Assembly: GCA_023250155.1 (NCBI GenBank)
Contig: JAHFBG010000005.1
Coordinates: 89,057-153,056 of the forward strand
DNA length: 64,000 nucleotides
Reading direction: 5' to 3'
Origin: Candidatus Melainabacteria bacterium
Lineage (GTDB): Bacteria; Cyanobacteriota; Vampirovibrionia; 2-02-FULL-35-15
Position 1 is the first letter of the stretch. The number at the start of each line of letters is the position of its first letter. Below are positions 1-27,514 of the stretch, piece after piece. The position numbers and the translations under genes were made by a program. A model generated the notes under the pieces. The model did no database searches. It had not been told where the DNA came from and saw only the letters and a program-made list of their open reading frames with translations.

Positions 1-1001
1 AATCAAACAAACAAAATGAGATAAAACAATATTTCCAAGAGACCATTGTGCTCCTGAACAAAGCTAAAGAAGAAGCTTTAGAAAATAAAACCAAATTTCA
101 AAAACACTTACCTTTAATCATAAAATCATATGGGCTGGATTATAATTCACTTCTTACAAGAATAGCGTTTCTTGAAGCCTCTTCCCTATGTCTTGAATTA
201 AAACAAGATCATAAAATCGGGCTATCTATTTTAGAACCCTACATAAAAAACATAAAGAAAACAGATCCTAGAATTATAGAGCTATACACGCATTTTTTAA
301 ATGAAGATGGAAGATATAAAGAAGCAAGAGACGTATTGCTTAAAACAAACTCTATTTATCCAAAAACACCTTTTATTCTAATGGCTCTTGTTGATTTATT
401 TTCAAAGTATGAAAATGATTTCAATAGTGCTGAAAAATATTTATTAGAAGCTTTAAAACTGCTGCCTTATGATAAGGATATTTTATTAAAAGCTTTAGGC
501 TTCTATCAAGGATATAAAGATCCATCGGTCACTGCAAGATATGCATATCTATATGGACTTAGAGCACAGTCAAAACCTGCTTATGAACAAGCACTATCAC
601 TATATCTAAATCTTGGAGATATAAATAAGGCATCTACAATAGCTTCAAAACTATTAAAACTTGATCCTAATGATCCAGAACTTCTTTATTTCGTCAGTAT
701 GTTTTATTATAAAGTAAAAGATTTTAAAAAAGCAATTTCACTACTCAGCAATGGATATGAAATCTGTAGAAGAACCAATATCAGTGATGTTCTTAGACTA
801 GAAATTGGCTATACTTTATCCAGGCTTCACTTACAAACAGGAAATAAAAATGCTGCAATAATTATTGCAAGAGATATACCTCAACTAGCTACAACTACAG
901 AAGATCTTAAAAAACTAGCTGTATTATATAACTCACTTGGATTAACTGACTATTTAAATTACTGTTTAAACAAATTTAAACTTCTAAACAAAACAAATTA
1001 G
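1..1001 (+). CDS. C-terminal TPR portion of a TMTC/PMT-like (membrane GT-C + TPR) protein; reading frame is open to the window start, so the N-terminal membrane domain probably lies upstream
   Basis: The frame has no stop back to nt 3. The 317-aa product aligns with the C-terminal TPR half of the downstream 800-aa paralog (KHLPLIIKSYGLDY / KIPLILKSYGLDY; RYAYLYGLRA in both). Confidence 0.5.
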   Translation, partial: SNKQNEIKQYFQETIVLLNKAKEEALENKTKFQKHLPLIIKSYGLDYNSLLTRIAFLEASSLCLELKQDHKIGLSILEPYIKNIKKTDPRIIELYTHFLNEDGRYKEARDVLLKTNSIYPKTPFILMALVDLFSKYENDFNSAEKYLLEALKLLPYDKDILLKALGFYQGYKDPSVTARYAYLYGLRAQSKPAYEQALSLYLNLGDINKASTIASKLLKLDPNDPELLYFVSMFYYKVKDFKKAISLLSNGYEICRRTNISDVLRLEIGYTLSRLHLQTGNKNAAIIIARDIPQLATTTEDLKKLAVLYNSLGLTDYLNYCLNKFKLLNKTN

Positions 1002-1003
1002 AA

Positions 1004-3406
1004 ATGAATAAAGAAATAAAACAAAAAAACTTTAGAACTTTAGTTGATCTGTTTATTTGCATAGTTATTGTTTTAGTCTTATTTATACCTACAATAAGTA
1101 GACCTTGGATCTCTTATGATGAGAGAGGCATCACTAATGAGTTGTATCTGCCCATACCAACCTCTTTCCAAGAGATATACGAGATTATTGAAAGTTTTGG
1201 TTTAAATTATAGTGTAACTTCTTCAAATACCCTCTACAGTTCAAATTACATAACAAGAACATGTCCACTAAGTACAATCTTAACGCTATCAGTTTTATAT
1301 CTATTTAAGAGCAATTCAATTTACTATCACCTAATGAATTTGTGCTTACATTTAATAACTACTTGTCTTATTTTTATTATTTTAAAGAACTTGCTAAAAG
1401 CCTGTCCAAGACCGTTGATAATTCTTTTAACAATTCTCTGGGGAATTCATCCAGTAGAACTAGAGTCAGTATTATTATCAACAAACTTTGGAGCACTTAT
1501 ATCTTACATGTTCTTTTTTATCTTTCTATTAGACTTCTTAAAAAACAAAGAAAAAAATAAGTCCATTCTTCGACAATGCTTAATACCTCTACTCTTCATG
1601 ATTCCAATGCTCACCAATGAATATATAATCACACTCCCTCTTGTTCTATTTACATTCTCATTCTATGAAAATTATAAAAATAATGATTTTAGAAAAGCTA
1701 TTTCTTTAACCATCATTCACACTAAGCCTTATTTTATTGGACTATTTATATACATACTTTATTTCTTTTTTATATCTCACTACAGTATAAGCCAAACTTC
1801 AAACCATAACTATTTTCTTCTGTTAATAGAACGGGGTTTTTGGCTTTCTCCTCAAGTATTTTTTCACTTGATTAAGCTTGTTTTCTTTCCATTCAAGCTC
1901 TCAATTGATCAAGGAGTCTTTGTAACACTTGGAAAATCTTTATTTGACCCTTATTCTATTTTTTGTATTTTATTTATGTCTATTTGGCTTTTTGTACCAT
2001 TGATATTTTTTCTATCAAAAAGAAAACTAGAAAATCTATTTCTTTTAACCTGGTCTTTTTTCTTTGCTCTATTACCATTTCTACATATTCTTATGCCATC
2101 GTATACCCTTGCTGCAGAACGATATCTTTATGCTCCGTTAGCAATAATGATCATAGGGGTAGGAATCATGTTAAATGAAAACATCCATAAGTACGGGTCC
2201 CGCCCACAAAGTGGGCGAGGCTCGCTCGAAAACCGAGTGGCACGACCCGCACCTACTAGTAAGGGCATACTGCAGTATGCCCTTACACTAATCATAGTGC
2301 TTTGTTTCATGCGCTCATATATTCGAACACAGGACTGGAAAAATGATTTCACTCTTGCCAATTCAACTATTCAAATCACTGACAACTTACTGTTAAAAGG
2401 TATAAGAACACAAGACCTAGGACAAACATTTTTAAAATCAAATCCCAATAATCTTACTAAAGCTTATAAACACTTCACGAAAGCTCAAGAATACTTCTAC
2501 CAAGCCATAGAAAAACTAAAACAAGAAAAAAAAGAAAATCCAAAGATACCACTCATTCTAAAAAGCTATGGACTTGATTATGATTCTCTTAGTGTAAAAG
2601 CTATATATCTAATCTGTGTTGAACCGTTTAACAACAATTCAGAAAATAAAAAAGACTATGAAGATGCCTTGAGAATTCTTATCCCTTATTTAAAACACAT
2701 TAAGATCTTTGATCCACGCACGCTGGAACTCTATGCAAATCTCTTAATAAAAAATAATGATCTAGAAAGTGCAAAAAAGATTTTTCTTTATGCTTACAAT
2801 AAATACCCAACCCAGCAAACATTGCTAATTTCACTAATTCGGTTAAATAGAGATATTGAAAGAAACTTACCCGAAGCAAAAAATTATCTCTTAAAAGCTT
2901 TAAGGTTGTATCCTTATTCAAAAGATATATTGTTCGAAGCAGTAAGATACTATCAGACAGAGAACAATTTAGAAGAATATTCTAGATATGCATATTTATA
3001 TGGACTACGAGCTCACTCTGCTTTTACTTATAGAGAAGCACTTACAGGATTTTTAACTCTTGGAACTCTTGATAAAGCCAAACAAGCTGTAGAAAAACTC
3101 TTGAGACTTGATCCAAGCAATCCAAGAACTTTATATCTTGTAAGTAGTTACTATATAAAAATACAAAACTATGATCTAGCCATTACACTACTAAATCAAG
3201 CATTAACACTTAATCAAAATAAAGACAAACAACTCGAATTTGATTTAAATAACTTATTAGCTAACTTATATCTGGCTCAGGGAAGCATAGAACAAGGCAT
3301 TCACCACATAATAGAAGCATTAAATATAGACAAAGAAAATATAGTCAATAAAAACAAAATGAATGAACTAATTAAAAGATATAGACTAAACCTACATGTA
3401 CCTTAA
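1004..3406 (+). CDS. Polytopic membrane protein with C-terminal TPR repeats, TMTC/PMT-like GT-C glycosyltransferase candidate; carries an in-frame GC-rich repeat insertion
   Basis: N-terminal multi-TM domain with a D-E (SYDERG) motif in the first loop. Conserved FWLSPQVFFHLIKLVFFPF block shared with ORFs 12653..14908 and 31935..33962. C-terminal TPR-like helical repeats. Confidence 0.55.
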   Translation: MNKEIKQKNFRTLVDLFICIVIVLVLFIPTISRPWISYDERGITNELYLPIPTSFQEIYEIIESFGLNYSVTSSNTLYSSNYITRTCPLSTILTLSVLYLFKSNSIYYHLMNLCLHLITTCLIFIILKNLLKACPRPLIILLTILWGIHPVELESVLLSTNFGALISYMFFFIFLLDFLKNKEKNKSILRQCLIPLLFMIPMLTNEYIITLPLVLFTFSFYENYKNNDFRKAISLTIIHTKPYFIGLFIYILYFFFISHYSISQTSNHNYFLLLIERGFWLSPQVFFHLIKLVFFPFKLSIDQGVFVTLGKSLFDPYSIFCILFMSIWLFVPLIFFLSKRKLENLFLLTWSFFFALLPFLHILMPSYTLAAERYLYAPLAIMIIGVGIMLNENIHKYGSRPQSGRGSLENRVARPAPTSKGILQYALTLIIVLCFMRSYIRTQDWKNDFTLANSTIQITDNLLLKGIRTQDLGQTFLKSNPNNLTKAYKHFTKAQEYFYQAIEKLKQEKKENPKIPLILKSYGLDYDSLSVKAIYLICVEPFNNNSENKKDYEDALRILIPYLKHIKIFDPRTLELYANLLIKNNDLESAKKIFLYAYNKYPTQQTLLISLIRLNRDIERNLPEAKNYLLKALRLYPYSKDILFEAVRYYQTENNLEEYSRYAYLYGLRAHSAFTYREALTGFLTLGTLDKAKQAVEKLLRLDPSNPRTLYLVSSYYIKIQNYDLAITLLNQALTLNQNKDKQLEFDLNNLLANLYLAQGSIEQGIHHIIEALNIDKENIVNKNKMNELIKRYRLNLHVP
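2191..2288. repeat. GC-rich nested-palindrome element inserted in frame in a CDS (encodes ..SRPQSGRGSLENRVARPAPTSKGILQYAL..)
   Basis: Local GC spike in AT-rich CDS. Hairpins cgggtc..gacccg, cgcccac-aaa-gtgggcg, and perfect palindrome agggcatactgcagtatgccct. Shares the tcccgccca..ggcgaggctcgct core with the insert in the UbiD gene at 62501..62605. Confidence 0.5.
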
Positions 3407-3466
3407 AACAAGATTGTTTAAAGATGCTTGTTGCTTTTATGATTATCAAATTTAATCATCTGTAAG

Positions 3467-5749
3467 TTAAAAATATTTTAAGACACAATTATGAATTGTA
3501 GCTTGCTGCTTTAAAATATCTTCACTAAAGGCATTAACAAATAACTTGTTTTTCTTAATCGTATGATCTATTTCCATGATCCGCTTCAGATACTTCGTAG
3601 CATCGATTTCACTTTGAAATAAAAGCATTACTTTAGTATTATAAGATTCTGGAAAAATAGCTACTTTTTCACTCAAATATACATTAAAAGTCCAATAAGC
3701 TCTCCTAGGAAAAGTAGAAATATATTTTTCTTGATCTGTAAATTCCAATAACATTGCTTTTGCATTAGGCAAATATTTATCTTCTATCTCAATAAGAGGC
3801 TTTAGCACACCTTCTTGAATTAATTTTTCAATCAATCCTAAATCAACAAATGGAGCTGTTCTACTATCTAAAAACAACCACTTAATATTTAATTCTTTTA
3901 TTAAATAGGGATCTAATGTTTGTAGCAAAGTAATATACGTTGCTTTTCTAGATAAGCTTGAGCCATTAATAGAGTAACAAGGTATCCCTACATAACCAAA
4001 TGGTAAAGAATTTATAGACAATCCACATTCATTGCTTTGTGAATGTTTTTGTAGATACTCAACAATTTCAGTAAATGATTTATCTGCATCTAATTTCCCC
4101 CTTAAGGATAATAATAAATTAGTTGAACTATTAAAAGTACTATCATGTAACCCAAGTTGAATTTTATTTATAAAATCATGATTTAAATAAATAGACGGGG
4201 AAAATATGCCACCTAAGACCAATGTTATAACTGGCTGGGAAATTATTATTACAACAAACAATATATTTTTGAATGTATTTAAAAATCTCACCCGCATTAC
4301 AAATGCCATATTGAATATACACAGTATAAATAAGCAAGTTAAAAGCTCATGTGCAGGATGATAAAGCCTTAAAATGTCTGGGGGAGAAGTCTTTATTAAG
4401 ACAAAAAATGGAATAATATATGAAATCAAAATAAATGACAGAATAAAATTTGTCCAAACAAAATTCTTTCGAATTAACCAGTAAACTACAAATATTGAAA
4501 ATATAAACTGTAACCCTAGTTCACATAAAAAATCCCATGAGAAAAAATTTATAATTCTATGATGATTTAAATCACCAAATCTACCAAAGACCTCAAATTG
4601 AAATGGGTTGGATTTTAGAAGATAGATAAAGAAATCTGGAATATAAGTATAATTTTGACTTATTATTGTAGTTGCTAAACCATTAAAAACTATAATTGCT
4701 ATAAAACAAATCAAACAAATCAGATTCTTAAGAACTAATGACTTGTAATTTGATTGGTTTTTAAATATCAGAAAGAGCATAGAAGACAATAATAAAGAAG
4801 CCATAAAAATATAAAGTATCCACTCTGCTGAATGAAATAACGCCAAAGAGGTAATGAGTATTGGTATTAAGTAAATAAAACTTGAAGTCTTACTTACAAA
4901 GTTAAAATACAAAAAAAGAAGTAGTAAAAAGAACTGAACACCTAAAGTAATTGATGCAAACATAATTCCAGCACTACCTAAATCACTCATGAAGCTTCCA
5001 TGCATTCCAAGAGCACAGACAGATTCAAATAAAGACCAGCTATTAGTAACAGGTTCAATTTTAAAAATATATCGAATTAATGAATCCAGCCAAAGTAAGT
5101 TCCCCGCAAAATAAAAAGCAATACTCCCGGCTAAAGCTTGCAAAAATGATTTTCCCTCTGTAAAAAAATAAACGATGGCAAAGCAAGAGAAAAAGATCAC
5201 AACTACTGAGGTAAGAACTACAAAATGAAATGAATTCAAAACACTAATATGCATGAGCTTAGACAATAATGCACTATATATATCAAAACCATAATGATAT
5301 GGAATAAAAATAGAAGGCCATGAGTATGTCCCTGTGGGAAATTTATCACTTGTAACAAAAAAAGATGCCTGTGAAAGATGGTACCCAAAATCCCAAATAG
5401 ATGACTTATTCAAAGTTAAGTAAGTGAAAAATAAAATAAAGGTACATATTATACTTAAAATTATTAGTTGTTTAAATTCTAATGTATTCTCAAATTTGAA
5501 AACTTTTTCCTTAAAAAAAAGTCCTACTGTAATCGAAATTAAAAATAAAATTAAAATCGATACTAAAGTAGCATTCTGTACACCAATGAAATAAGCCAAG
5601 CTATAAATTAATATTAAAAAAGATGCTGTACCAAATACAAAAGAAAAAGGAAATAAATAAACAATAGAGCTTATATCAAGCAAAGTTCTTAATACAACCC
5701 ATCCAAAAAAAGGTAATATTAAAAATAACAATGAATAAATAGTTATCAT
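3467..5749 (-). CDS. Large polytopic membrane protein, paralog A of a three-member family; putative GT-C-type glycosyltransferase with C-terminal soluble domain
   Basis: 760 aa, many TM helices. Conserved loop (IWDFGYH vs IHDQAWH / IHDKEFH) and C-terminal LDPxLxxELNIKW motif shared with 5803..8121 and 8121..10421. Confidence 0.45.
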   Translation of the reverse strand: MITIYSLLFLILPFFGWVVLRTLLDISSIVYLFPFSFVFGTASFLILIYSLAYFIGVQNATLVSILILFLISITVGLFFKEKVFKFENTLEFKQLIILSIICTFILFFTYLTLNKSSIWDFGYHLSQASFFVTSDKFPTGTYSWPSIFIPYHYGFDIYSALLSKLMHISVLNSFHFVVLTSVVVIFFSCFAIVYFFTEGKSFLQALAGSIAFYFAGNLLWLDSLIRYIFKIEPVTNSWSLFESVCALGMHGSFMSDLGSAGIMFASITLGVQFFLLLLFLYFNFVSKTSSFIYLIPILITSLALFHSAEWILYIFMASLLLSSMLFLIFKNQSNYKSLVLKNLICLICFIAIIVFNGLATTIISQNYTYIPDFFIYLLKSNPFQFEVFGRFGDLNHHRIINFFSWDFLCELGLQFIFSIFVVYWLIRKNFVWTNFILSFILISYIIPFFVLIKTSPPDILRLYHPAHELLTCLFILCIFNMAFVMRVRFLNTFKNILFVVIIISQPVITLVLGGIFSPSIYLNHDFINKIQLGLHDSTFNSSTNLLLSLRGKLDADKSFTEIVEYLQKHSQSNECGLSINSLPFGYVGIPCYSINGSSLSRKATYITLLQTLDPYLIKELNIKWLFLDSRTAPFVDLGLIEKLIQEGVLKPLIEIEDKYLPNAKAMLLEFTDQEKYISTFPRRAYWTFNVYLSEKVAIFPESYNTKVMLLFQSEIDATKYLKRIMEIDHTIKKNKLFVNAFSEDILKQQATIHNCVLKYF

Positions 5750-5802
5750 AAAGTCATATCAATTATTGCTTATTTATAATATAGTGTCAAAATAGGTAAA
5801 CA

Positions 5803-8121
5803 ATGGCACTATCAATCTTAATAACAATCTGTTTTTTTTCAATTTGCACATGTTTTGGATTTTTTTATTTGAGCAAAATTTTGAAAATTAATTCTTTGCT
5901 CTTTTTAATATCATTCTCTACTTCACTAGGCATAAGTTCTTATATTTTTCTTTGTCATCTTTTATCATTTATCATGGGACCTTCAAAAGCTTCAGAGATA
6001 TCTTTATGTGTGTTATTAGCCCTAACTATAATAATATTTCTAACTTGCAAAATAAAAGAAAAACTATTCTTAGAATTTAGCAAAAATAAATTTGGTTACA
6101 TCATATTAATCACAATAATTATAATTGCATGCACTTTTTCTGCAATATATAAGCACAGTATTCATGATCAAGCATGGCATATCCCTCTTGCACAAAGCAT
6201 TTACAAAAACTCTATTTATCCACTAAGAGATTTTTTAAGACCTGATTATGCTCTTATTTATCATTTTGGCGGAGATCTCTTTAGCGGAGCCATAAATCAT
6301 CTTTCTAAAATTGGTATCTTTAATTCTTTTGAGGTAACATCTAGCATTTGTGGTGGCATAACATTCCTAAGCTTGTTTTGTCTAGCTTGGATACTAACTA
6401 AAAAATATAAGTTATCTTTAATTTCAGCATTTTGTTGTTATTTTGGCTCAGGCTTACTCTGGTTAAATGCTCTTAGTACTTATACTACCAAGAACACATC
6501 TAATCTAAGTTTCATAGAAATATTCTTATCGAAAGGTATATATGGGTACATTTATAATTCACCATCTATAACTACTTTTTCATCCTCATCTAGCCTAGGA
6601 TACCCCATCCTGATTTTATGTTTTTTCTTGTTCTACATATTAACTAAGAAAAATAATTTGAAAGATTCCATTCTCTATATTCTTAGCTTGCCTATCTGTT
6701 TATTATCACTTAGCCTTTGTGCAGGCTGGTTATGCTTATCATTTCTAGCCAGTATATCCCTATACTTATTAATAATACTTTTAACAACCCTTATAAAAAA
6801 GAGAAAGATCCCTAGTCTGGCATTCGGCGTTTTTACAATGCTTTTTGTTTTTATTCTTCTGAATATTTTTTTTAGAAATGAAATGTACTCACAAGACCAA
6901 TTTCTTGGACGTTCAAATATTTTCAATATTGTCCTTAAAGAAAATCCATTTACAGTAACTGCTTGGAGCAGTGGGGAGGTATTCACCAAAACTATCTCAT
7001 GTTTTAGCTGGGATTTTATTCAGTCTTTTGGTTTAAGTCTTATACTCTTACCTATAGTTTTTATTTATTTATTAAAGTATAAAAATAAATTCTCTATATT
7101 GCTTTTTCTAGTACCACTTTTAACAATGCCACTGCCCCTATTATTTGAGTTCAAGCTAAGTCCTGTTGACTTTAATAGGCTGTTTGGTTTTGGAAATATC
7201 ATGCTTATACTTTTAACAACAACTGGAATTGGTTTACTTTATAAGAACTTTACTAATAATAAGCTTCTTCTTATAACTTATGTCATGTTCTTTTGTCTCT
7301 CATCACTTGCTGGATTATTAATTGGTGTTTTATTTTGTCCACAAATGTATTCAGATGCAGTCTTTACCAAGACTGCATTGCACAACCTTAGCAAAACAAA
7401 TTCCTTCGATGATTTATTCAAATTTCAAACAGAAATAACTAGAGACGCTCTAATGTCAAAATATTTATTCTCAGATAAATATAAAAGTGAGGTTAACTTC
7501 TTTACAAAATATGGTATGTCTTCTGATGTTGCTATAAGTAGTATCCCAGGTATTCCAATTTATTCTGGAGTTTATACTCTTATTCCATCAATGATGTATG
7601 GGCTAAAGAGTCAAATCTATTCTGGCTTTGACAATATTTATCCAACAGTTATTACTACACTAGATCCACATTTATTAAATGAACTGAATATAAAATGGGT
7701 GGGATATGATGAAGTATCAAAGAAAAAACTTCCTAAAGAAACACTTGACTTTCTAAATGACAGAAATATATTCATGTTGGTTTATTCAAGTCAAATCGAA
7801 CCAGATCCTAAGAATAAAATCTCTTATCAAATATTTCAAGTGAGTAACTTAACAAATCAATTACAAAATTATAAAAGACAAGCAGGATGGATACTGGTAG
7901 ATAAGGAAGGTAACCCAATTGAAATCATACAAAAACTTTATCCTAACATTAGCTTGTTTACTACAGAAAAAAATGCTCTTCAATACTTAAAAAAACTCAT
8001 ATCTCAAAATTTAAATCTTAAAACACAACTAATTACTGCACAACCAATTATTATTAAAATCACGCAAGAACAATTAGCTCAAAGTGGCTTATCTATAAAA
8101 TTAGAGGAGCATATTAATTAA
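5803..8121 (+). CDS. Large polytopic membrane protein, paralog B; putative GT-C-type glycosyltransferase
   Basis: 772 aa. Same architecture and motifs as paralogs A and C. Stop overlaps the next start (TAATG). Confidence 0.45.
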   Translation: MALSILITICFFSICTCFGFFYLSKILKINSLLFLISFSTSLGISSYIFLCHLLSFIMGPSKASEISLCVLLALTIIIFLTCKIKEKLFLEFSKNKFGYIILITIIIIACTFSAIYKHSIHDQAWHIPLAQSIYKNSIYPLRDFLRPDYALIYHFGGDLFSGAINHLSKIGIFNSFEVTSSICGGITFLSLFCLAWILTKKYKLSLISAFCCYFGSGLLWLNALSTYTTKNTSNLSFIEIFLSKGIYGYIYNSPSITTFSSSSSLGYPILILCFFLFYILTKKNNLKDSILYILSLPICLLSLSLCAGWLCLSFLASISLYLLIILLTTLIKKRKIPSLAFGVFTMLFVFILLNIFFRNEMYSQDQFLGRSNIFNIVLKENPFTVTAWSSGEVFTKTISCFSWDFIQSFGLSLILLPIVFIYLLKYKNKFSILLFLVPLLTMPLPLLFEFKLSPVDFNRLFGFGNIMLILLTTTGIGLLYKNFTNNKLLLITYVMFFCLSSLAGLLIGVLFCPQMYSDAVFTKTALHNLSKTNSFDDLFKFQTEITRDALMSKYLFSDKYKSEVNFFTKYGMSSDVAISSIPGIPIYSGVYTLIPSMMYGLKSQIYSGFDNIYPTVITTLDPHLLNELNIKWVGYDEVSKKKLPKETLDFLNDRNIFMLVYSSQIEPDPKNKISYQIFQVSNLTNQLQNYKRQAGWILVDKEGNPIEIIQKLYPNISLFTTEKNALQYLKKLISQNLNLKTQLITAQPIIIKITQEQLAQSGLSIKLEEHIN

Positions 8122-10421
8122 TGTTTTGTTATATAAAGTTTTTTTTATTTTTAATTTCTATTTGTGGCTTTGGTTTTACATCTTTAGTTCAAGTGAATAA
8201 AATAAAATCACTTGTCTTGTTAATTCCATCTTCTATCATAATGGGTACAGCCTCATATTTATTTCTTACTCACATTCTTTCTTTCATTATGGGTCCACAA
8301 TCTGCTTGCATAGTAAGTTTATTAGTTTTAATTGTTTGTACAATAACACTTTTAATTACAAAAAGGAGAGAGTTTTTAAAAATAGAGAATGAATTTACAA
8401 AGAATCAACTTATAAGTTTAATCCTCCTTGCAATATCAATATGTACTCTTACCTGGCTTGCTACAAGCAAGTTTGGTATCCATGACAAAGAATTTCATAT
8501 TCCTGTCGCACTGTCTATATTTCACAACAATATTTATCCTCCAAAAGATTTTTATAGACCTGAATATCTTTTACTCTATCATTATGGGGGAGACATATTA
8601 GCTGGTGCAATAAATCATATTTGCAAGATAGAAATTCTTTCTTGTTATGAATTAACCTCAACAATTTTTAGTGGAACAACATTTTTGTGTTTTTTTGCAC
8701 TGGCTTGGCTAATAACAAATAGTTTTCAAATATCAATTCTTAGTGCATTTTGTACTTATTTTGGCGGTGGACTTTTATGGCTGGACGCTATTATACGATA
8801 TCTCTCAAACACACTACCTGCAAACTCTTATAAATGGGATTTTCTACAAACCCTTTTAAATATTGGCATCCATGGAGGAATAATTGATGCTCCATCTGTT
8901 GGCACATTTGTATCTACAAGCAGCTTTGGTAATCCTTTGCTAATTTTCTCATTGATACTTTTTTGGAAATTCTTCAATGAAACCAATATTAAAATTCAGA
9001 TTGCAAATTTAATCTTTTTAACCATTTCTCTATTTAGTCTGTTCATCACTGCTGAATGGCTTTACATGACGTTTTGGGCAGGAATCATACCATTCTTACT
9101 ATTTCAAGCATTTAAGAGAAAAAATCTTGGTATGAGTGTTGTATTACTTATATCATCAATAATTCTTAATAAAACCCTTGGAAATGCTTTATTCCTACAG
9201 GATTCTATTCATCATCTTGGTCGTGCAAATATTTTTAACATCGGTATAAAAGAAAAATTGTTCTGGGTTACAAGTTGGGGGAGGCTTAGTGATATAACAA
9301 ATGAGTATAGAGAACTATCTTGTTTTTCATGGGATTTTATATCTGAGTTTGGCTTAAGTATGATTCTATTTCCACTTGTAATCATTTATTTATTTAAAGA
9401 AAGAAATAAACTTGCAATTCTTTTATTTCTATGCTCAATATTCACTATGTCACTACCCGTTATTATAGATTTTAAAATAAACCCTGTTGATGCTAATAGA
9501 TTTTTCGGGTTTGGAAACTCCATGTGTGTGATGTTAATTATAATTGGCATAAATAAAATCTTTAATTCCTATACACTTAAAAAGTTTATAGTTAGTGTTA
9601 GCATTATCGGATTTACATTGTCTCCAGTCACAGGACTAGTTCTTAGCTCAATTTTTAGTCCTTATATTTATCTAAGTAAACCGTTTGTCCATCATGTTTT
9701 TAATGAATTGAAAAAAGTTAAATCAATTGCAGAACTACAAGTTAACTTGTTAGCTTTAAATACATTGTTTTCGCAAAATTACAGATTCTATACACTCTAT
9801 CAATTTAAAAATATAATACAATTCTTAAAAGAACATAGCAAGCCAAATGATGTTGCAATTAGTAGCTCTACAGATATTTCTTTATATGCAGGTATTTATA
9901 CTTTAATACCTGCCAATGCATGGCTTTATAAGGATCTTTTATATTCACCATTTGACAGCATTTATTTAACTACACTTACTACTCTAGACTATCATCTATT
10001 AAATGAGCTAAATATTAAGTGGGTCATTCTCAGTAATCGAGCTAAACATAATCTCCCACAAGAAACTCAAAAGAAACTATTAGACAATGATATTTTAAAC
10101 TTAGTTTACATAGATAAGAATAATGATCTTGAAGTATATTACGTAAAAGCTCTAAGGAATATACTTCAAAATACTCCTCGTCAGACCGCTTGGTTATTAG
10201 TAAATAAAACTGGTAACCCTATTGAACCCAACATTCTACAAGAGAATAAAATTTCTTTATTTTCTACTTCATTTAATGCACTATCATATTTAAGCCAATT
10301 AATTAAATTGAAACTTATTGAAAAAAATGAATTGGTCACATCACAAGCTGTTGAGATAAGTAAACTTGAAGAACAAATAAATAAAGGTAATCTAGGAATC
10401 GCCCTGGATAGAAGATTTTAA
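8121..10421 (+). CDS. Large polytopic membrane protein, paralog C; putative GT-C-type glycosyltransferase
   Basis: 766 aa. The YHxGGD..GAINH block and LDYHLLNELNIKWV motif are shared with paralog B. Translationally coupled to paralog B. Confidence 0.45.
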   Translation: MFCYIKFFLFLISICGFGFTSLVQVNKIKSLVLLIPSSIIMGTASYLFLTHILSFIMGPQSACIVSLLVLIVCTITLLITKRREFLKIENEFTKNQLISLILLAISICTLTWLATSKFGIHDKEFHIPVALSIFHNNIYPPKDFYRPEYLLLYHYGGDILAGAINHICKIEILSCYELTSTIFSGTTFLCFFALAWLITNSFQISILSAFCTYFGGGLLWLDAIIRYLSNTLPANSYKWDFLQTLLNIGIHGGIIDAPSVGTFVSTSSFGNPLLIFSLILFWKFFNETNIKIQIANLIFLTISLFSLFITAEWLYMTFWAGIIPFLLFQAFKRKNLGMSVVLLISSIILNKTLGNALFLQDSIHHLGRANIFNIGIKEKLFWVTSWGRLSDITNEYRELSCFSWDFISEFGLSMILFPLVIIYLFKERNKLAILLFLCSIFTMSLPVIIDFKINPVDANRFFGFGNSMCVMLIIIGINKIFNSYTLKKFIVSVSIIGFTLSPVTGLVLSSIFSPYIYLSKPFVHHVFNELKKVKSIAELQVNLLALNTLFSQNYRFYTLYQFKNIIQFLKEHSKPNDVAISSSTDISLYAGIYTLIPANAWLYKDLLYSPFDSIYLTTLTTLDYHLLNELNIKWVILSNRAKHNLPQETQKKLLDNDILNLVYIDKNNDLEVYYVKALRNILQNTPRQTAWLLVNKTGNPIEPNILQENKISLFSTSFNALSYLSQLIKLKLIEKNELVTSQAVEISKLEEQINKGNLGIALDRRF

Positions 10422-10557
10422 AGTGTTATAACAATCTCAATGGTCTTTATAAATGCGCTTAATGACATATTATCCTAAAAATTTCTGCGGGAAACTCCAA
10501 ATTTAATCTATTGATATAATGTTATTTTAAATCTAAGGGTTAATATAGGTCAAAAAC

Positions 10558-11679
10558 TTGATTTCATATTTAAAAAATTTAAAAGATAAGGTAGACCGCC
10601 AAGTTGGTTCTGACTTTGTACAAAGAATTCTTCAATACCAAGGTGCAAAAGGATTAGTGAATCTTGTTAATGTTTCACTTACAGCTCTTCAGGAAGAACA
10701 GCCACCAAGATTAAATTATTTGCCCCCTTGTTTATTTGTAGAGGTAACAAACAGATGTAATCTTACATGTCCTACTTGCCAGCTTGGCACTGATGAAGCA
10801 TATAGAGGTTATAACAAAGGTGATATAAGTTTTGAGAACTTTAAAAAAGTCATTGATCAAATACCTTCTCTTGTTTATGTAACACTACAAGGTGTTGGTG
10901 AACCTCTTTTAAATAAAGACATTATGAAAATGATCCGACATTGTACTGATAGAGGAATTGCTACTTATATAAACACAAATGGCACAATACTTACTGAAAC
11001 AAAATCTCGCGAGCTTATTGAAGCTGGCTTATGCAATCTTTCAATATCAGTAAACAGCTTTAATGAAGATGTCTTTGCCAAAACAAGAAGTGGGGCATCT
11101 ATTACAAAAATCGCAGAAAACATTAAAAAATTTATAGAAATAAAAAGAAGTCTAAATTCAAAAAAACCAATTGTTTCTTTTAGATCCATACTAATGAAAG
11201 AAACTGAGCCTCATATGGAGGAATTGATTTTAAAATCAAGTGAGCTTGGAGTAGATGTATTATATATCCAGCTTTTTATCAGTATGATAGCAGACAAAAG
11301 TCTCATGGAATCTTCACTATCAAAAGATGAGGTTGAAAGCTTTTCAGAAAAGCTTGAGCAATGGAAGAAACAAGTTAAGAATCTTGAAATTGTTACTGAA
11401 AGTTTTGGCAAATCATCTAACAATCTAGGACAATGTAAGCTTCCATGGTTCAGTCCAAATGTAACTGCTGAAGGGTATGTTACACCATGCTGCACCATCA
11501 GCAATCCAAGCATTATAAATATGGGCAATGTTTTTGAAACCCCTTTTGAACAAATTTGGAATTCAGAAAAATTTGTAGAGTTTAGAGGGGGCTTCTATAA
11601 GAAGCAGCCTACAGTATGTACAGGCTGTCCTAGCTATATATTAAAATCGGCTTCTAATGGAAAGCCTGTCTACAATTAA
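10558..11679 (+). CDS. Radical SAM enzyme with C-terminal SPASM-type Cys cluster
   Basis: CNLTCPTC (CxxxCxxC) near the N-terminus, GVGEPLL. C-terminal Cys-rich region (CKLPW..PCCTIS..CTGCP). Confidence 0.65.
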   Translation: MISYLKNLKDKVDRQVGSDFVQRILQYQGAKGLVNLVNVSLTALQEEQPPRLNYLPPCLFVEVTNRCNLTCPTCQLGTDEAYRGYNKGDISFENFKKVIDQIPSLVYVTLQGVGEPLLNKDIMKMIRHCTDRGIATYINTNGTILTETKSRELIEAGLCNLSISVNSFNEDVFAKTRSGASITKIAENIKKFIEIKRSLNSKKPIVSFRSILMKETEPHMEELILKSSELGVDVLYIQLFISMIADKSLMESSLSKDEVESFSEKLEQWKKQVKNLEIVTESFGKSSNNLGQCKLPWFSPNVTAEGYVTPCCTISNPSIINMGNVFETPFEQIWNSEKFVEFRGGFYKKQPTVCTGCPSYILKSASNGKPVYN

Positions 11680-11684
11680 GCCTC

Positions 11685-12656
11685 ATGAGAAAATATACTT
11701 TTCTCATTATCAAACTAGTTCTCTTTGTAGGAATTTGTACTTGGATAGTTAAGTCAGTCAATATCACAGAATCACTTAATGTACTAAAAAAAACAAACCT
11801 GCTTTATTACTTAATAGCTTTTTTATTAAGTAATCTATCCAATATTTTTCTAACAATAAAATGGCATCGATTATCAACACCACTAAATATAAAAAGCAAT
11901 TTTTGGGAGTTATTATGTTTGAATTATATTTCCGTCTTTTATAGCATTTTTATTCCTGGGCAAGCCTCTGGAGAGGTGATTAAAGGACTAAAATTGATAA
12001 AAAAAGAGGGGTCTCATCAAACCATCTGGGTACCAATATTTATCGATAAGATAACCAATGTTTTAATCGTGTTTATAATAGGGTCCATTGCTACTTTATT
12101 AGATAGTAATTTCAGAAAAAATACAAGCTTAGTTATTTTACTTATTACAATAACAGCATTACTAGTGCTTTTGACTTTAATTCTATTCAGTGAAAATACA
12201 ACAAAAATTGTAGATTTTCTAAAAAAAATCCTCATTAATATCCTAACTATATTTAAACTGAATACTCAATTTATTAAAAACTTTTCAGTGGATTATTTTG
12301 AAAATTATAAAAAACAAGATTTAATTCTCTTAGAAACATTAATGTGGAGCTTATTTATAAAAATTCCTCCTGTTTTTTCTTTGTATTTTTTAGCTTTGAG
12401 TTTAAATATTGATTTGAATATAATCCAATCCGCATGGCTATTTTCACTTGTTTCTGTCGTAAGCCTATTACCTATAAGTTTTTCAGGGCTTGGTGTTAGA
12501 GAAGGGACTATAATTGTTTTACTATCAAAAATTGGAATACCAAATTCATTCAGCTTGAGTTTGTCTATGCTAATCTTTACTACAGGAATATTAATGGGAC
12601 TAATAGGAGGAGCACTAGAGCTGGTTTCTAGCTTTAGACTATTTAAGTCAAAATGA
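11685..12656 (+). CDS. Integral membrane protein of the flippase-like / lysyl-PG-synthase-TM-like family (UPF0104-like)
   Basis: About 8 TM helices and no soluble domain. Sits in a glycan locus. Its 3' end overlaps the next gene (ATGA). Confidence 0.4.
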   Translation: MRKYTFLIIKLVLFVGICTWIVKSVNITESLNVLKKTNLLYYLIAFLLSNLSNIFLTIKWHRLSTPLNIKSNFWELLCLNYISVFYSIFIPGQASGEVIKGLKLIKKEGSHQTIWVPIFIDKITNVLIVFIIGSIATLLDSNFRKNTSLVILLITITALLVLLTLILFSENTTKIVDFLKKILINILTIFKLNTQFIKNFSVDYFENYKKQDLILLETLMWSLFIKIPPVFSLYFLALSLNIDLNIIQSAWLFSLVSVVSLLPISFSGLGVREGTIIVLLSKIGIPNSFSLSLSMLIFTTGILMGLIGGALELVSSFRLFKSK

Positions 12657-14908
12657 GTAAAAAGTCTTGGTTCATTAACAACTATCACATTTGGATTCCT
12701 CTTCTAATAACATTTTTAATATATGCAATTTCCCTAATCTACGGATTTAGAAACTTCGATGAAGACATTTTAATAAAGAACTTTTACACACATAAAACAT
12801 TTCAAGAATATATTGAGAAATTTTTTTTAGTTCATGCTGGTGGTGCATCTAAAGCACATGGGTTTTCATTTTCAGGGGTACAGAATACTCATGTGTGTTT
12901 TCTTGGAATGCCAACCATTTATCTGGTGGCTTATCTCTTTAAAGCAAATCCTTTCTTATATCATTCATGGAGCTTGCTGTTACACTCTATTGCAGTAGTC
13001 TTTTTGGTGTTATTTGCACATCGATTAACTCAAGATAAAAAGATTGCAATGTTTACAGCATGCGCCTGGACATTACATCCTACAAATGTAGAGTCAATCA
13101 TTTGGGCTACAAACTGGTTACAGTGCTTAGGAGCAGGATTTTATTTTTTCATCTTGTGGTGGATCACATCAATCATTCATAGTGACATGCCGTGGCATGT
13201 CACTACGCGACAAACCTTTTCAATAATGCTTTTCACTACCATAGCAATTTTATTCACCGAGCACACCATTACCATACCAATTGCAATTTTTGTAACTACT
13301 TTCTATCTCTTAAACAATTTAAAACAAAAAAATGCTTTGCAAAATTCTATAAAAACAAGCTTACCATCATTTGTTGTAATATTTAGTTATTGGCTTATAA
13401 GAAATCTAATGATTTCAAAAGCAATACAAACATCTTCAAGTAATGGGTTTCATGAACTCTTGAATAGACTGCTCTTTTTAACTCCACAAGTTTTTATACA
13501 TCAAATAAAGCTTGTTTTATTTCCAGCAAATCTAACAATTGATCAATTGGATTTATTACATTTAGATCAATCATACTTCAGGAGCTATCACCTAATCTGC
13601 CTAATAACAATTGCATTAATTGGAGTAAGTATATTTCTTCTTAGAAAGAGTTTTCCATTCTTATCTTATGGACTACTGATGTACACGGTAACTCTCTTAT
13701 CTTTTATTCAAATCATTCCACTTTACTCTATGTCAGCTGAAAGATACAACTATTTTGGCTCTGCATTTATTGTCCTTGGAATTATAAGTACAATATTTCA
13801 ACTTAATAAATTTAAAAAAACAGCTCCTTATATAGCTATTTTATGGTGTTTAATACTAGGCATAAGAGGTGAGTTTAGAATATGGGACTGGAAGGATAGT
13901 AAAACACTATTCCGTAGCACAATCAACACAAGCAAATCATTCTTAAAGAAAGGGATTTGGACTTATAACCTTGCTATTTGTGAAGAAGATATAGAGAAAA
14001 AGAAAGTATTATTAACAGAGTCAAATATACTGTTGAAGCGGTTTATTCAACAACCTACAAAACGTTATGAGATTGACAAAAGCGTTGGTTTAATCCTTAC
14101 AAAGTATGAATTAGATCCTGAATCACTACTAGCAAAAGCCTCTGACAGAATAGCTACTAACTATGAAATCTTAGGAGATAAAAAAAATCAATTAAAATAT
14201 CTAAACAAAGCATTAAAATACTCAAGACCTAAATCCCAATCCAGAAGCTTAATCTATAAAAATCTTGGGACTTACTATTTTCAAGAAAGTAATTATAAAA
14301 AATCATTAGATTACTATTTTAGGAGTTATGAAATCTCACCTAATCCTACAATTTCATATGCTATAAGCATTTGTTATCTCAAGCTAAACGATTTTAACAA
14401 CTATGAGAAGTACTTAAAAGAAGCAGCTTCTGTAATTTCTCCATATAATGTTTCACCATTTAAAACCTATGGACAGTTTCTAGAACTAGAAAAGCATGAC
14501 TATGCAAATGCTCTTAAATACTATAAGATAGCAAGTTTACTTGAAAACAATGTTGAGCCTTATATCTTACTTAGTTCTCTTTATTTAAAACAAACTCAGA
14601 TTAATAAAGCCTATGAAATTATAAAGAATGGACTTCATAGTTTTCCAGAAAATCCTACACTCATTTATTTTCGAGGAACGGTAAATTTAAATAAAGGTAA
14701 AATTAATGATGGGCTACAAGATTTAATCAATGTAATTAAAAAAACTGATACTTCAAATGATATTAAAATCGAGGCTTGCCATATTCTTGTTAACCTATTT
14801 CTTAACCAAAATGATTATAATAATGCTAAAAAATATAATGATTTGATTCTATCCATAAATCCCAACGATAAAGAAGCTAATGAGTTAAAAAGAACTGAAA
14901 TTTATTGA
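12653..14908 (+). CDS. Polytopic membrane protein with C-terminal TPR repeats, TMTC/PMT-like GT-C candidate
   Basis: FDEDIL in first loop. FLTPQVFIHQIKLVLFPANLTIDQ block paralogous to the 1004 and 31935 ORFs. TPR-like C-terminal half. Confidence 0.55.
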   Translation: MSKKSWFINNYHIWIPLLITFLIYAISLIYGFRNFDEDILIKNFYTHKTFQEYIEKFFLVHAGGASKAHGFSFSGVQNTHVCFLGMPTIYLVAYLFKANPFLYHSWSLLLHSIAVVFLVLFAHRLTQDKKIAMFTACAWTLHPTNVESIIWATNWLQCLGAGFYFFILWWITSIIHSDMPWHVTTRQTFSIMLFTTIAILFTEHTITIPIAIFVTTFYLLNNLKQKNALQNSIKTSLPSFVVIFSYWLIRNLMISKAIQTSSSNGFHELLNRLLFLTPQVFIHQIKLVLFPANLTIDQLDLLHLDQSYFRSYHLICLITIALIGVSIFLLRKSFPFLSYGLLMYTVTLLSFIQIIPLYSMSAERYNYFGSAFIVLGIISTIFQLNKFKKTAPYIAILWCLILGIRGEFRIWDWKDSKTLFRSTINTSKSFLKKGIWTYNLAICEEDIEKKKVLLTESNILLKRFIQQPTKRYEIDKSVGLILTKYELDPESLLAKASDRIATNYEILGDKKNQLKYLNKALKYSRPKSQSRSLIYKNLGTYYFQESNYKKSLDYYFRSYEISPNPTISYAISICYLKLNDFNNYEKYLKEAASVISPYNVSPFKTYGQFLELEKHDYANALKYYKIASLLENNVEPYILLSSLYLKQTQINKAYEIIKNGLHSFPENPTLIYFRGTVNLNKGKINDGLQDLINVIKKTDTSNDIKIEACHILVNLFLNQNDYNNAKKYNDLILSINPNDKEANELKRTEIY

Positions 14909-15018: not shown

Positions 15019-17382
15019 ATGAAAATCAGCCAATTAATAGGCTCAGCAATACTAAGTACCACTTTTATCGTGGGCTCACAAAGTATTTCTGCAGGTGAAA
15101 AAGATAAACAGCCATCAAAAACCTTAACAGAAAAGAGACTCCAACCTCCACCTAAAATAAAAATAGCCTTAGACCAATTTGATATTACAAAACAAGAAAT
15201 TGTAGATGAGTTATTTAAGAATTTTGAAGATGTAAAACTCGGCAAAAGTGAAAGAGAAGAAATATCTAAATTTTTTAATGACAAGCTACAAACAATAGAT
15301 CGACCTACTGAGTCTTTTACGAAGGGATGTTTTTTATTGTTAGAGCTTTCTCGCAATGAACGAAATCATCATCAAAAATTTATTGAGTGGCTAAACCTAC
15401 AAGCAGAACAATCAATTCGCGATAAATCAAAAGAAAAGCAAAAAATCATAGAAAGTGCTATTAGAGAAGAATTGCGCATGGTAATAAAAACATTGAATCA
15501 TATTGAGCTCTCTAAATCTTTGGTTATACCTTATACAAAACTAATAAAAGAAAATAATTCTAATGCAGACTTTCTAAAGAATGGGATACGAGTTTATGAC
15601 CAATTTAAATCAAGAGGAAGTAAAGAAATCAATGACAACTCAATAGCACTACTTGACAATATCATAGAAGGATTATTAAAACTTCCGCGAAATGAACAAA
15701 AAGAACTTAAAGCTCAGATTCTTTTACTCCCTCAAAATAGTAATTTTCAGTCTGATAATGAAGCAGAACAAAACAGGCTTGTAGAACGATTATCAAAAGC
15801 ATTATGTAAGAATAAAAATGTTGATACCGATGGATTGATACAATTAACTGATTCATTTTTATATAAGGTTCCTTATCTTGGTTCAACTCAAACAGCAACA
15901 AAATGGCATCCTTATACACTCTATAAACTAGTCAATGATAATAAAGAATATTTTGAAAAAAATATTAAAAATATTACTGAAACAACTCAAGATTCTAAAG
16001 ATGAAAAGGCTAGATTAAAGGCAAGAGATGAGCTTCTACAAGCCTATATAACCTTCCAACATATTCCTAGAATAAAAAAGCTTTCTGATACTTACATTAA
16101 TATAGATCCAAAACTTGTTAGTCTTGAAAACTTAGGTAAGCTACAAAAAGAAGTAAGTACTTGGTATAACGATAAGCTAGAAAGACCAATGTTTAAAAGT
16201 ATTGTACAAGCATTAGAAAGTGAATCTGTAGAAACAACTACTTCAAGTAATGGAATACGATATGCTAAAAATGAAAGCTGGAGAGATCTTAACAAACACT
16301 TAGAAATCATAGTGAGGGTTAATCCTGAGCTAAAAAATGAATTTCGAGATGTCTTAATTAAAAGACTTGAAAATGATAAGAGTCCACAAAATAGAGAAAT
16401 GGTATATGAAACAATTAAAAACATATTGTATAACCAAGCATTTATAGAACACCCTCCACTAATGAATCTTATAAAAAAAGGAATTGCTGAGGAATCATCA
16501 AATGGAGCTTATCTCATTGGAGAACTGCTGCCTTCTGGTTGGCGTCCTCACTCATTTGTCAATGCATTTGAAAACTATGATGTAATTAAAGAATTAGACC
16601 CAAAAGAAGTGTCAGCAATTGATGCTATCAAATTTGATCTTATTCGTACTGTAAGTGGTGACACTGATTTATACAAAATTTATCTACCGCGACATTCTTT
16701 TGAACCAACAAAAGATAAAACAATAGATCCTAAAACGCTTAGTGCTATCTTACAACTTAGAGAAAATGCATACATTGCACTTTCTTCTATTAATCTACAC
16801 AGCCTTGAAGCAAGGGCTCATGATAAAAGAATTGATTACCTTGAAAGAAGAATTGAAAGGGTTGGAACCATTCAAACGCTTACCCCAACATGGGGAAAAC
16901 AAGCTGCTTCTCTTACCATGCTTTATCTTCAATATAGCGATACTGTCTTACCTGAAAGCGAAGGTAAAATTTACTTTGAATCAAAGTTAGATTTTTTAAG
17001 GGGAAAATTTTTTGATGGTATTACAAAAACATATGAAATAGAAGGTGAGAAAAAAAAATACACAACTATACCCTTTTTCAATGCAGTATTAGAAAGTGAG
17101 TTCATCAGATTAAACCCAGATGAAAATAGAAAAATTATCGACCAGCTTTATCGTCAAAAAGCTACAAATGCAGAAATTAGAGATCAAATTTTCAGACAAG
17201 AATCAAAACTTCAAAGAAGATATATTGAAATGAAACAAACATTTGCATTAAATTTTTTAACTCTTTTATGTGAGCGTGACCACACAAAGTTTAATGAATA
17301 CCTGCCTTATCTACAAAGACTAGGATATAGAAATGATGAGATTAGAGAAGTAGTAGCTATGTTTCTTGAAACGAAGGACTGA
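15019..17382 (+). CDS. Secreted α-helical protein, member 1 of a two-paralog family (function unknown)
   Basis: N-terminal signal-peptide-like segment (…ILSTTFIVGSQSISA|GE). The C-terminal third aligns with ORF 18935 (LDFLRGKFFDG / LDFLREKFFEG; YEIEGEKKKYTT). Confidence 0.5.
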   Translation: MKISQLIGSAILSTTFIVGSQSISAGEKDKQPSKTLTEKRLQPPPKIKIALDQFDITKQEIVDELFKNFEDVKLGKSEREEISKFFNDKLQTIDRPTESFTKGCFLLLELSRNERNHHQKFIEWLNLQAEQSIRDKSKEKQKIIESAIREELRMVIKTLNHIELSKSLVIPYTKLIKENNSNADFLKNGIRVYDQFKSRGSKEINDNSIALLDNIIEGLLKLPRNEQKELKAQILLLPQNSNFQSDNEAEQNRLVERLSKALCKNKNVDTDGLIQLTDSFLYKVPYLGSTQTATKWHPYTLYKLVNDNKEYFEKNIKNITETTQDSKDEKARLKARDELLQAYITFQHIPRIKKLSDTYINIDPKLVSLENLGKLQKEVSTWYNDKLERPMFKSIVQALESESVETTTSSNGIRYAKNESWRDLNKHLEIIVRVNPELKNEFRDVLIKRLENDKSPQNREMVYETIKNILYNQAFIEHPPLMNLIKKGIAEESSNGAYLIGELLPSGWRPHSFVNAFENYDVIKELDPKEVSAIDAIKFDLIRTVSGDTDLYKIYLPRHSFEPTKDKTIDPKTLSAILQLRENAYIALSSINLHSLEARAHDKRIDYLERRIERVGTIQTLTPTWGKQAASLTMLYLQYSDTVLPESEGKIYFESKLDFLRGKFFDGITKTYEIEGEKKKYTTIPFFNAVLESEFIRLNPDENRKIIDQLYRQKATNAEIRDQIFRQESKLQRRYIEMKQTFALNFLTLLCERDHTKFNEYLPYLQRLGYRNDEIREVVAMFLETKD

Positions 17383-22226: not shown

Positions 22227-23042
22227 ATGGTCATAACAGAAGAAAAAACAAGCAAATCAATTAACGAAAGAGAAAACGCTGTAAGACAAACAAGCACAAT
22301 AAGCTTAAACCTTTTTAATTATTGTTTTTTGATTTATTATTATTTAGTAAAAGAGATTAAAAAAAATGCTCATTATGCTAAAGGAGTATTGCTTGATGTA
22401 GGATGTGGATCTTCTCCATTTCAAAACTATTTTCTACCTCACATAGAAAAATATTTAAAACACGAACATCCCCTTGCTGTAAAACCAAACATTGAATATG
22501 ACTATCTTTCAGAACTACCAGAAATAAACGCACCCACAAATTCAATAGATACAATAATTTCATTCTCAGTTTTAGAACATGTAAGCGAACCATTTGAAGC
22601 CATAAAGGAGTTTAAAAGAATTTTAAAAGATAATGGAGTATTCATGATATCTGTTCCACAGTATTGGCATCTTCATGAAGAACCCCATGACTATCTTAGA
22701 TTTACAAAACACGTACTGAGAGAAAAAATTACTAAATTAGGTTTTAAGATCTTATACATGAAAGAAGAAGGAAAGTCTTTTGCTACTGTAGGCCAGGCTT
22801 TTTGTAATGCAATTATTTTAATGTTTGAATTAAAACATGTTAAAAATATTGTTAATTTTCTATCAGGAAAAAAAGTAGATAATATTGGGAAAAGTATTAT
22901 TTATGCTATTTACAAATCTCCTTTAATTCTTTTAGCAATTATCCTAATACCACTTATCAATTTAATCTTTTTAACCTTAGATCAAATACTAGGTAGCCCA
23001 AGAGATACTATTGGGTATTTTGTTATTGCAAGAAAAGTTTAA
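22227..23042 (+). CDS. Class I SAM-dependent methyltransferase (type 11-like)
   Basis: LLDVGCGSSPF motif I, FSVLEHV motif. Flanked by two copies of the structured repeat. Confidence 0.55.
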   Translation: MVITEEKTSKSINERENAVRQTSTISLNLFNYCFLIYYYLVKEIKKNAHYAKGVLLDVGCGSSPFQNYFLPHIEKYLKHEHPLAVKPNIEYDYLSELPEINAPTNSIDTIISFSVLEHVSEPFEAIKEFKRILKDNGVFMISVPQYWHLHEEPHDYLRFTKHVLREKITKLGFKILYMKEEGKSFATVGQAFCNAIILMFELKHVKNIVNFLSGKKVDNIGKSIIYAIYKSPLILLAIILIPLINLIFLTLDQILGSPRDTIGYFVIARKV

Positions 23043-23076
23043 ATGTATTAACTGGTATTGCATCTCTGAATACAAA

Positions 23077-27509: not shown

Positions 27510-27514
27510 GATTT

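Follow-up and report, generated by a model that had tools for sequence, protein, structure and literature searches.

TPR-Tailed Membrane Proteins at One Locus

The window, as we call the whole 64,000-nucleotide stretch that was analyzed (contig JAHFBG010000005.1, positions 89,057 to 153,056), has a base composition of ∼30% G+C and comes from an uncultured Melainabacteria-like bacterium. It carries four open reading frames (ORFs) whose products end in tetratricopeptide repeats (TPRs) and are very likely periplasm-facing GT-C glycosyltransferases; on balance, we favor their assignment as TMTC/TMEM260/TfpW-like transferases in a lipid-linked-sugar envelope glycosylation pathway. ORF1 (3..1001, plus strand, 332 amino acids) is present as a C-terminal TPR tail only. 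It is followed by ORF2 (1004..3406, plus strand, 800 amino acids), which divides into a membrane domain at nucleotides (nt) ∼1004−2344 and a TPR tail at nt ∼2345−3403. ORF8 (12653..14908, plus strand, 751 amino acids) has the same layout, with the membrane domain at nt 12653−13888 and the tail at nt 13889−14905. A protein of a third type, to which we refer as the fourth paralog, is encoded on the minus strand (31935..33962, 675 amino acids; membrane domain nt ∼32763−33962, tail nt ∼31938−32762). An original prediction, made from the sequence alone, had placed four related genes at these positions, and all four are found there.

The relatedness of the four ORFs is far above chance. BLASTP returns E values of 2e-38 for ORF2 against ORF8, 3e-22 for ORF8 against the fourth paralog, and 9e-14 for ORF2 against the fourth paralog, and the tails of ORF1 and ORF2 align at 2e-49 with 40% identity. 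TPR matches fall in the C-terminal third of all four proteins, and the relatedness that had been predicted is borne out. Across the three subfamilies, identity in the membrane domain still amounts to 24−30%, and the tails can hardly be aligned. In the tandem arrays of two related loci, L017 and L021, most pairs have diverged in both domains (33−45% identity in the membrane domain, 27−40% in the tail), and L021 also holds one recent pair, at 58% and 65%, respectively. The window contains only the TPR tail of ORF1, its membrane domain and acidic motif lying upstream of the window edge. Because this tail is 62% identical to that of a full-length copy on a related contig (L012:3119-5461), which sits directly upstream of an ORF2 ortholog, ORF1 is almost certainly a complete enzyme truncated by the window edge.

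Predicted Fold, Topology, and Catalytic Motifs

An AlphaFold model of ORF8 built on 27 sequences (pLDDT 88.9, pTM 0.87) places 11 long helices before residue 412, followed by a predicted periplasmic tail of approximately nine TPR-like helical hairpins. A Foldseek search with the whole ORF8 model returned TPR proteins only. The fold of the TPR type is GT-C, and the closest solved structure is that of a protein O-mannosyltransferase (PMT), Pmt4; this is the outcome of the structural comparison that the original prediction had proposed. O-antigen ligases, polymerases, and transporters, which that prediction had named beforehand as the result that would speak against it, are not among the structure matches of the TPR paralogs. 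No Wzy_C or transporter hidden Markov model (HMM) matches these proteins, and a Wzy_C/WaaL-like fold was not found for them. The N-terminus is rich in Lys and Arg, as are short alternate loops read from the sequence (QDKK, LKQK, LRKS, NKFKK), while the other loops contain the acidic residues and His that are conserved. Because the two kinds of loops alternate in this way, the N-terminus is predicted to be cytoplasmic, and the catalytic face to be periplasmic together with the TPR tail. TMTC, TMEM260, and TfpW are arranged alike.

The acidic D-[DE] motif reported in the original prediction for all four proteins is found just after transmembrane helix 1 in the three full-length ones, as SYDERG in ORF2 (D39 E40, nt 1118−1123), FDEDIL in ORF8 (D36 E37, nt 12758−12763), and WGDDSF in the fourth paralog (D40 D41, nt 33840−33845); the ORF1 copy is outside the window. 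We aligned the three full-length window proteins with 73 further copies from related loci. In ORF8 numbering, the loop-1 Asp (D36) is kept in all 74 non-gap copies, and only Glu or Asp occurs at position 37. Six residues (E203, Q279, P291, R364, Y365, and Y367) are each present in 76 of 76 copies; H104 is kept wherever the alignment has no gap (75 of 75), and H283 is found in 75 of the 76. D36 corresponds to TMTC motif M1, E203 to M4, and the R364, Y365, and Y367 set to M7. Three of these positions (Q279, H283, and P291) belong to the predicted F/WxSPQ…H..KL…P block, which is real and which lies in the loop between helices 7 and 8 (the loop-4 block of ORF8, nt 13466−13552). The ERYxY motif reads ERYLY in ORF2 (nt 2117−2131) and AERYNY in ORF8 (nt 13736−13753). 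Because the catalytic positions are kept in all aligned copies, the TPR paralogs appear to be working enzymes and not decaying duplicates.

Family Relationships

A search with the ORF8 membrane domain recovered 27 relatives at 43−54% identity, the sole source-named one being Candidatus Melainabacteria. When a profile of the membrane domain was run against 1.84 billion representatives, 86,231 matched at E ≤ 1e-3 and 52,549 at E ≤ 1e-10. TPR repeats were present in 32 of 51 sampled relatives and PMT_2 in 7 of the 51; one distant homolog, P0028 (E 1e-6), carries PMT_2 at E 2e-10. Because of the number of profile matches and the share of sampled relatives with TPRs, the TPR-tailed GT-C architecture appears to be common in bacteria. 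The consensus of the 51 distant relatives (DD..YRPL..HPxxTE..E..LP..AERYLYxPS..RNxDW) is TMTC-like, and the loop-1 Asp is its sole invariant column. An hhalign comparison of the family profile with the window's own PMT_2 protein, in which the template was a single sequence, gave an uninformative probability of 4%. The TMTC/PMT architecture of the original prediction stands in part: the GT-C fold, the 11 helices with a TPR tail, and the TMTC-type catalytic and phosphate-binding motifs agree with it, but formal family membership is not supported, since the DUF1736, PMT, and PMT_2 HMMs miss all four proteins and none of the four has a MIR match.

Conservation of the Island and Its Other Genes

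The same gene order is found in seven genome loci, all of them Candidatus Melainabacteria metagenome-assembled genomes and several named groundwater isolates, and is also conserved in several metagenome loci, which are Melainabacteria wherever a name is given. It runs from ORF2-type copies through GT-C genes of approximately 765 codons to genes for a radical SAM enzyme, a flippase-like protein, an ORF8-type copy, a methyltransferase, RmlA, and RmlB. Within the 10-kb flanks that bound these counts, the ORF2-type gene is present in one to at least six copies and the 765-residue type in one to three; in arrays of at least six TPR-tailed copies the catalytic residues are kept in all. We take the locus to be a conserved Melainabacteria envelope-glycosylation island, unusually expanded.

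Three of the genes in this order encode GT-C proteins of a DUF2298-like family: 3467..5749 (minus strand, 760 amino acids, 13 hydrophobic segments), 5803..8121 (plus strand, 772 amino acids), and 8121..10421 (plus strand, 766 amino acids, with a C-terminal alpha/beta periplasmic domain). The first is 27% identical to the third (E 3e-59) and the second 43% identical to it; the DUF2298 match itself is weak and occurs in only one of the three. These proteins are also GT-C, with an alpha/beta periplasmic C-terminal domain replacing the TPR repeats. Two PMT_2-type GT-C paralogs, 37% identical to each other, lie on the minus strand at 45534..47270 and 43886..45565 (PMT_2 E 1.3e-6 and 2.5e-3). The original prediction spoke of further GT-C genes, which understates the case: nine GT-C genes, in three or four families, lie in a 50-kb part of the window.

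The most conserved gene of the cluster encodes the radical SAM/SPASM enzyme (10558..11679, plus strand; Radical_SAM E 1.7e-19, SPASM E 5.8e-15), at 75−85% identity between loci versus 45−60% for the GT-C genes. A search for a precursor-peptide ORF adjoining it found none. The segment 14909..22226, approximately 7 kb, is missing from all related loci, where the methyltransferase gene comes immediately after the ORF8-type gene. Two paralogs that are 35% identical (15019..17382 and 18935..21754), of which at least the first has a signal-peptide-like N-terminus, are encoded in this segment, together with two small ORFs; none of these ORFs has a Pfam or PADLOC match. A PADLOC scan also returned nothing for eight proteins without a confident Pfam assignment.

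Farther downstream, the block 25512..36725 encodes an AsnB-like amidotransferase, PP-loop-like and GNAT-like proteins, a GT2 enzyme, a WecE-type transaminase, the fourth paralog, a methyltransferase, and a 12-helix protein. In locus L002, RmlB is directly followed by the GT4 gene that lies at 36806 in the window, and for this reason the block looks like an insertion. The 12-helix protein (34980..36725, minus strand, 581 amino acids, ∼12 hydrophobic segments) is encoded just upstream of the operon of the fourth paralog; it has no family match, and no similarity to the other GT-C families of the window was detectable. Five methyltransferase genes of the S-adenosylmethionine-dependent type are scattered across the island (22227, 33959, 38007, 39033, and 48376), which suggests heavily methylated sugars. 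An apparent operon on the minus strand (40261..48153) combines a GT2 gene, the two PMT_2-type GT-C genes, and genes for a carbamoyltransferase, an SxtJ-like protein, and an SGNH/GDSL-like membrane protein; it would be the third module for a lipid-linked sugar, and the sugar that it adds is probably carbamoylated or acylated. Downstream of RmlB, three related loci (L003 16881..21922, L005 12613..18143, L007 15241..20918) encode paired multi-helix proteins, 740−950 amino acids long, that are absent from the window. The motif DTPxDIR occurs just after helix 1 in the five copies of 918−951 amino acids, a hydrophobic segment lies near the C-terminus in six of six copies, and the 743-residue L003 copy has a weak YfhO match. 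These pairs are probably further GT-C enzymes.

Donor Supply

The sugar nucleotide genes of the island are readily assigned. A methyltransferase, RmlA (glucose-1-phosphate thymidylyltransferase), and RmlB (dTDP-glucose 4,6-dehydratase) are encoded at 22227..25314 on the plus strand, with RmlA scoring 346.6 bits against an NCBIfam equivalog cutoff of 320 and RmlB 468.9 against 365. The fourth paralog belongs to a tight minus-strand operon (34915 to 29832) whose first gene encodes a methyltransferase (33959..34915). The GT-C gene is followed by those for a WecE-type dTDP-4-amino-4,6-dideoxyhexose transaminase (30766..31932; NF008687, 605 bits against a cutoff of 375) and an ArnC/GtrB/PgfS-like GT2 polyprenyl-phosphate glycosyltransferase (29832..30752). 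The latter aligns end-to-end with PgfS (6e-68) and ArnC (9e-53), both below the equivalog cutoffs. The matches of a second GT2 protein (47260..48153, minus strand) are to Dol-P-hexose transferase, AglJ, and ArnC. Each of the two GT2 proteins carries a pair of transmembrane helices at its C-terminal end (residues 235−253 and 263−281 in the first), a feature typical of polyprenyl-phosphate glycosyltransferases. Orthologs of the fourth paralog in loci L009 and L010 adjoin genes for DegT, GT2, formyltransferase, and WbqC. By its context, which is the only point of match, the module of the fourth paralog would be Arn-like and make a lipid-linked N-acylated amino-dideoxyhexose.

The gene of the flippase-like membrane protein (LPG_synthase_TM/TIGR00374; 11685..12656, plus strand) lies directly upstream of ORF8 and overlaps its start. 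Its scores with PF03706 (107 bits) and TIGR00374 (78.8 bits) are both above the cutoffs, and the protein is a candidate translocase for a lipid-linked sugar. The lipid-linked-sugar machinery of the original prediction is represented to the extent that the locus encodes the genes needed for lipid-linked monosaccharide donors. From the Arg of the ERYxY motif, conserved in all 76 copies, and the two ArnC/GtrB-like GT2 genes, we infer that the donor is a polyprenyl-phosphate-linked sugar.

Candidate Acceptors

The original prediction had pointed to a surface protein with cadherin-like He_PIG repeats separated by Ser/Thr-rich linkers. The protein is there (57255..60224, plus strand, 989 amino acids), with a signal-peptide-like N-terminus and seven He_PIG repeats, but these are directly tandem, and two Ser/Thr tracts (residues 89−113 and 766−780) lie on either side of the array, not between its repeats. 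We note that its C-terminal 270 residues (59400..60224; residues ∼720−989) are very Cys-rich, have no Pfam match, and are preceded by a run of 14 Ser. The gene lies 42 kb from ORF8 with recF, gyrB, and prs in between. No homolog was found within 8−10 kb of the cluster in nine loci (L001−L007, L009, and L010), and the flanks of the same loci hold no homologs of the products of 15019..17382 (secreted) and 18935..21754. No evidence found here links the He_PIG protein to the cluster, and we regard it as an unlikely acceptor. No prepilin cleavage/methylation motif was found in any frame of the window, and it has no pilin-type gene.

As a class, periplasmic or surface proteins modified by Ser/Thr O-glycosylation are the single most likely acceptors, at a little less than an even chance, and an envelope polysaccharide or lipopolysaccharide (LPS) is nearly as likely. 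A protein acceptor is favored by Pmt4 being the closest structure and by the characterized GT-C enzymes with a TPR tail (TMTC, TMEM260, and TfpW), all of which act on proteins. In streptococci, moreover, GtrB or PgfS has a GT-C enzyme as its partner in the glycosylation of regions rich in Ser/Thr (PMC12041528). For a glycan or LPS acceptor speak the many and varied GT-C enzymes, the abundant sugar-tailoring genes, the Arn-like operon, and the lack of a conserved acceptor gene. The protein O-glycosylation reading is plausible.

Proposed Pathway and Alternatives

In the pathway that we favor, cytoplasmic RmlA, RmlB, the WecE-type transaminase, and the methyl-, acyl-, and carbamoyltransferases would produce modified dTDP-6-deoxy or amino sugars, which the ArnC/GtrB-like GT2 enzymes would place as single sugars onto undecaprenyl phosphate. 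The flippase-like protein would then carry the lipid-linked sugar over the inner membrane, and the GT-C enzymes, whose first periplasmic loop bears a putative catalytic pair of Asp and Asp/Glu, would transfer it at the periplasmic face, the TPR tail picking the acceptor or a docking partner. More tentatively, the system may be a bacterial counterpart of animal TMTC/TMEM260, by which a cyanobacterial relative that does not photosynthesize would O-glycosylate proteins through a client-specific network. Such a network might comprise three subfamilies, with at least six tandem copies in some genomes, each tail conceivably directing its enzyme to a different folded domain or Ser/Thr-rich region in proteins of the periplasm or surface. 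Its sugar could be an unusual 6-deoxy or amino sugar delivered from undecaprenyl phosphate, a suggestion that we hold with similar reserve.

Several observations weigh against this assignment. The membrane domains have no match in Pfam (E up to 10, including isolated N-terminal halves) or in NCBIfam (E up to 1), in both of which only TPR models matched the proteins, and sequence searches of the PDB returned nothing, whether the query was one sequence or a profile of 13. Because curated models miss the membrane domain, the class assignment is one of predicted structure, motifs, and transitive homology. There are only two polyprenyl-phosphate GT2 genes for nine GT-C genes, and no acceptor-protein gene is conserved within the cluster in the related loci compared. 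The TPR domains of bacterial polysaccharide machines are scaffolds and not substrate selectors, and the TPR tail is therefore no proof of a protein acceptor.

The strongest alternative is a periplasmic polysaccharide assembly line in which the GT-C enzymes, TPR-tailed or not, would add sugars singly from lipid-phosphate donors to a growing envelope glycan. It is possible, if doubtful, that the island works in this manner, as do mycobacterial Emb/Aft or the ALG mannosyltransferases of the endoplasmic reticulum, with the TPR tails holding a complex together or tying it to an export apparatus. The presence in one island of nine GT-C genes, drawn from three or four families, would suit such a line, as would the long co-oriented operons with sugar nucleotide and tailoring genes (five methyltransferases, the carbamoyltransferase, and the AsnB-like amidotransferase) and the lack of a conserved acceptor-protein gene. 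However, the TPR type is closest in structure to Pmt4, which O-mannosylates proteins, the characterized TPR-tailed GT-C enzymes all modify proteins, and Wzx, Wzy, Wza, an ABC exporter, and a priming phosphoglycosyltransferase were not recognized in the window.

A role in decorating LPS, at its lipid A, core, or O-antigen, as the Arn, Gtr, or Lgm systems do, is improbable for the island and would apply above all to the fourth paralog, where an amino-dideoxyhexose on undecaprenyl phosphate would be added to LPS in the periplasm. The operon of methyltransferase, GT-C, WecE, and ArnC-like GT2 genes mirrors ArnB-ArnC-ArnT, and the orthologous operons bring a formyltransferase, as in ArnA, as well as WbqC. 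This explanation leaves the arrays of at least six ORF2-type copies unaccounted for, and ArnT, GtrC, and LgmB are not known to have a TPR tail. That the proteins are not glycosyltransferases at all but O-antigen ligases or polymerases, transporters, or decayed duplicates is disfavored as highly improbable: the membrane domain does go unmatched by every curated HMM, but the Wzy_C and transporter models are among those that miss it, and catalytic positions invariant over 76 copies show that the copies are not decaying.

We return to the TMTC/TMEM260/TfpW-like assignment, under which the proteins add new and divergent members to a kind already known, the TPR-tailed GT-C enzymes, and are encoded at an unusually expanded locus. 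The TPR-tailed GT-C proteins form a very large bacterial family, with more than 86,000 sequence clusters; TMTC and TMEM260, to which they are related in animals, are disease genes. The catalytic domain is overlooked by the present models of Pfam and NCBIfam, and public annotation reads only "TPR protein". Many paralogs that appear catalytically intact are combined at the locus with the enzymes that probably make their donors, with a flippase-like protein, and with a radical SAM enzyme. Being recognizable and conserved, it offers a defined system in which to ask what bacterial TPR-tailed GT-C enzymes glycosylate and how the tail sets specificity.

Comparison with Known Systems

The closest parallels are with TMTC1-4, the animal cadherin O-mannosyltransferases (CAZy GT105), whose motifs M1−M7 are defined in PMC7801869. 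Shared with these enzymes are 11 transmembrane helices, a cytoplasmic N-terminus, and a non-cytoplasmic TPR tail, as well as the Asp pair in loop 1 (M1), the Glu in loop 3 with a Thr (M4), ERxxY ahead of helix 10 (M7), a conserved loop that contains a helix and joins helices 7 and 8, and the presence of several paralogs per genome. There are also differences. The helix 7/8 loop of the window proteins (PQ..H..KL..P..L.ID), at the site of the DUF1736 segment of TMTC, is not matched by the DUF1736 HMM; M2 (SHKSYRP) is reduced here to a His or Arg at one position, while the bacterial family at large keeps YRP; another residue stands in for the Lys of M4; M5 (DW) reads D-Q; and M6 is altered or absent. 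The donor would likewise differ, being likely an undecaprenyl-phosphate 6-deoxy or amino sugar and not Dol-P-Man. The PMT family (fungal, animal, and actinobacterial; GT39) carries a MIR beta-trefoil where the window proteins have a C-terminal TPR tail, and its PMT and PMT_2 HMMs miss the TPR paralogs.

In the literature searched, TfpW of Pseudomonas aeruginosa is the only characterized bacterial TPR-tailed GT-C or TMTC-like enzyme. This pilin O-arabinosyltransferase of ∼650 amino acids is a GT-C of the inner membrane that has 11 helices and, at its C-terminus, a TPR domain in the periplasm (bioRxiv 10.1101/2020.04.19.049825). It has a DDx motif in a periplasmic loop and uses a polyprenyl-phosphate monosaccharide donor. 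It differs in that tfpW lies directly downstream of pilA, whereas the window has no pilin-type gene or motif, and in being a single copy where a tandem array is found here. Finally, the three-component systems ArnB/C/E/F/T, GtrA/B/C, and streptococcal GtrB-PgtC2 and PgfS-PgfM1 resemble the island in combining a two-helix GT2 enzyme, a flippase-like protein, and a GT-C enzyme; with Arn, the operon of the fourth paralog also shares an aminotransferase. Their GT-C enzymes lack a TPR tail and occur in one or two copies, and the flippase-like protein of the island belongs to the LPG_synthase_TM family and not to GtrA or ArnE/F.

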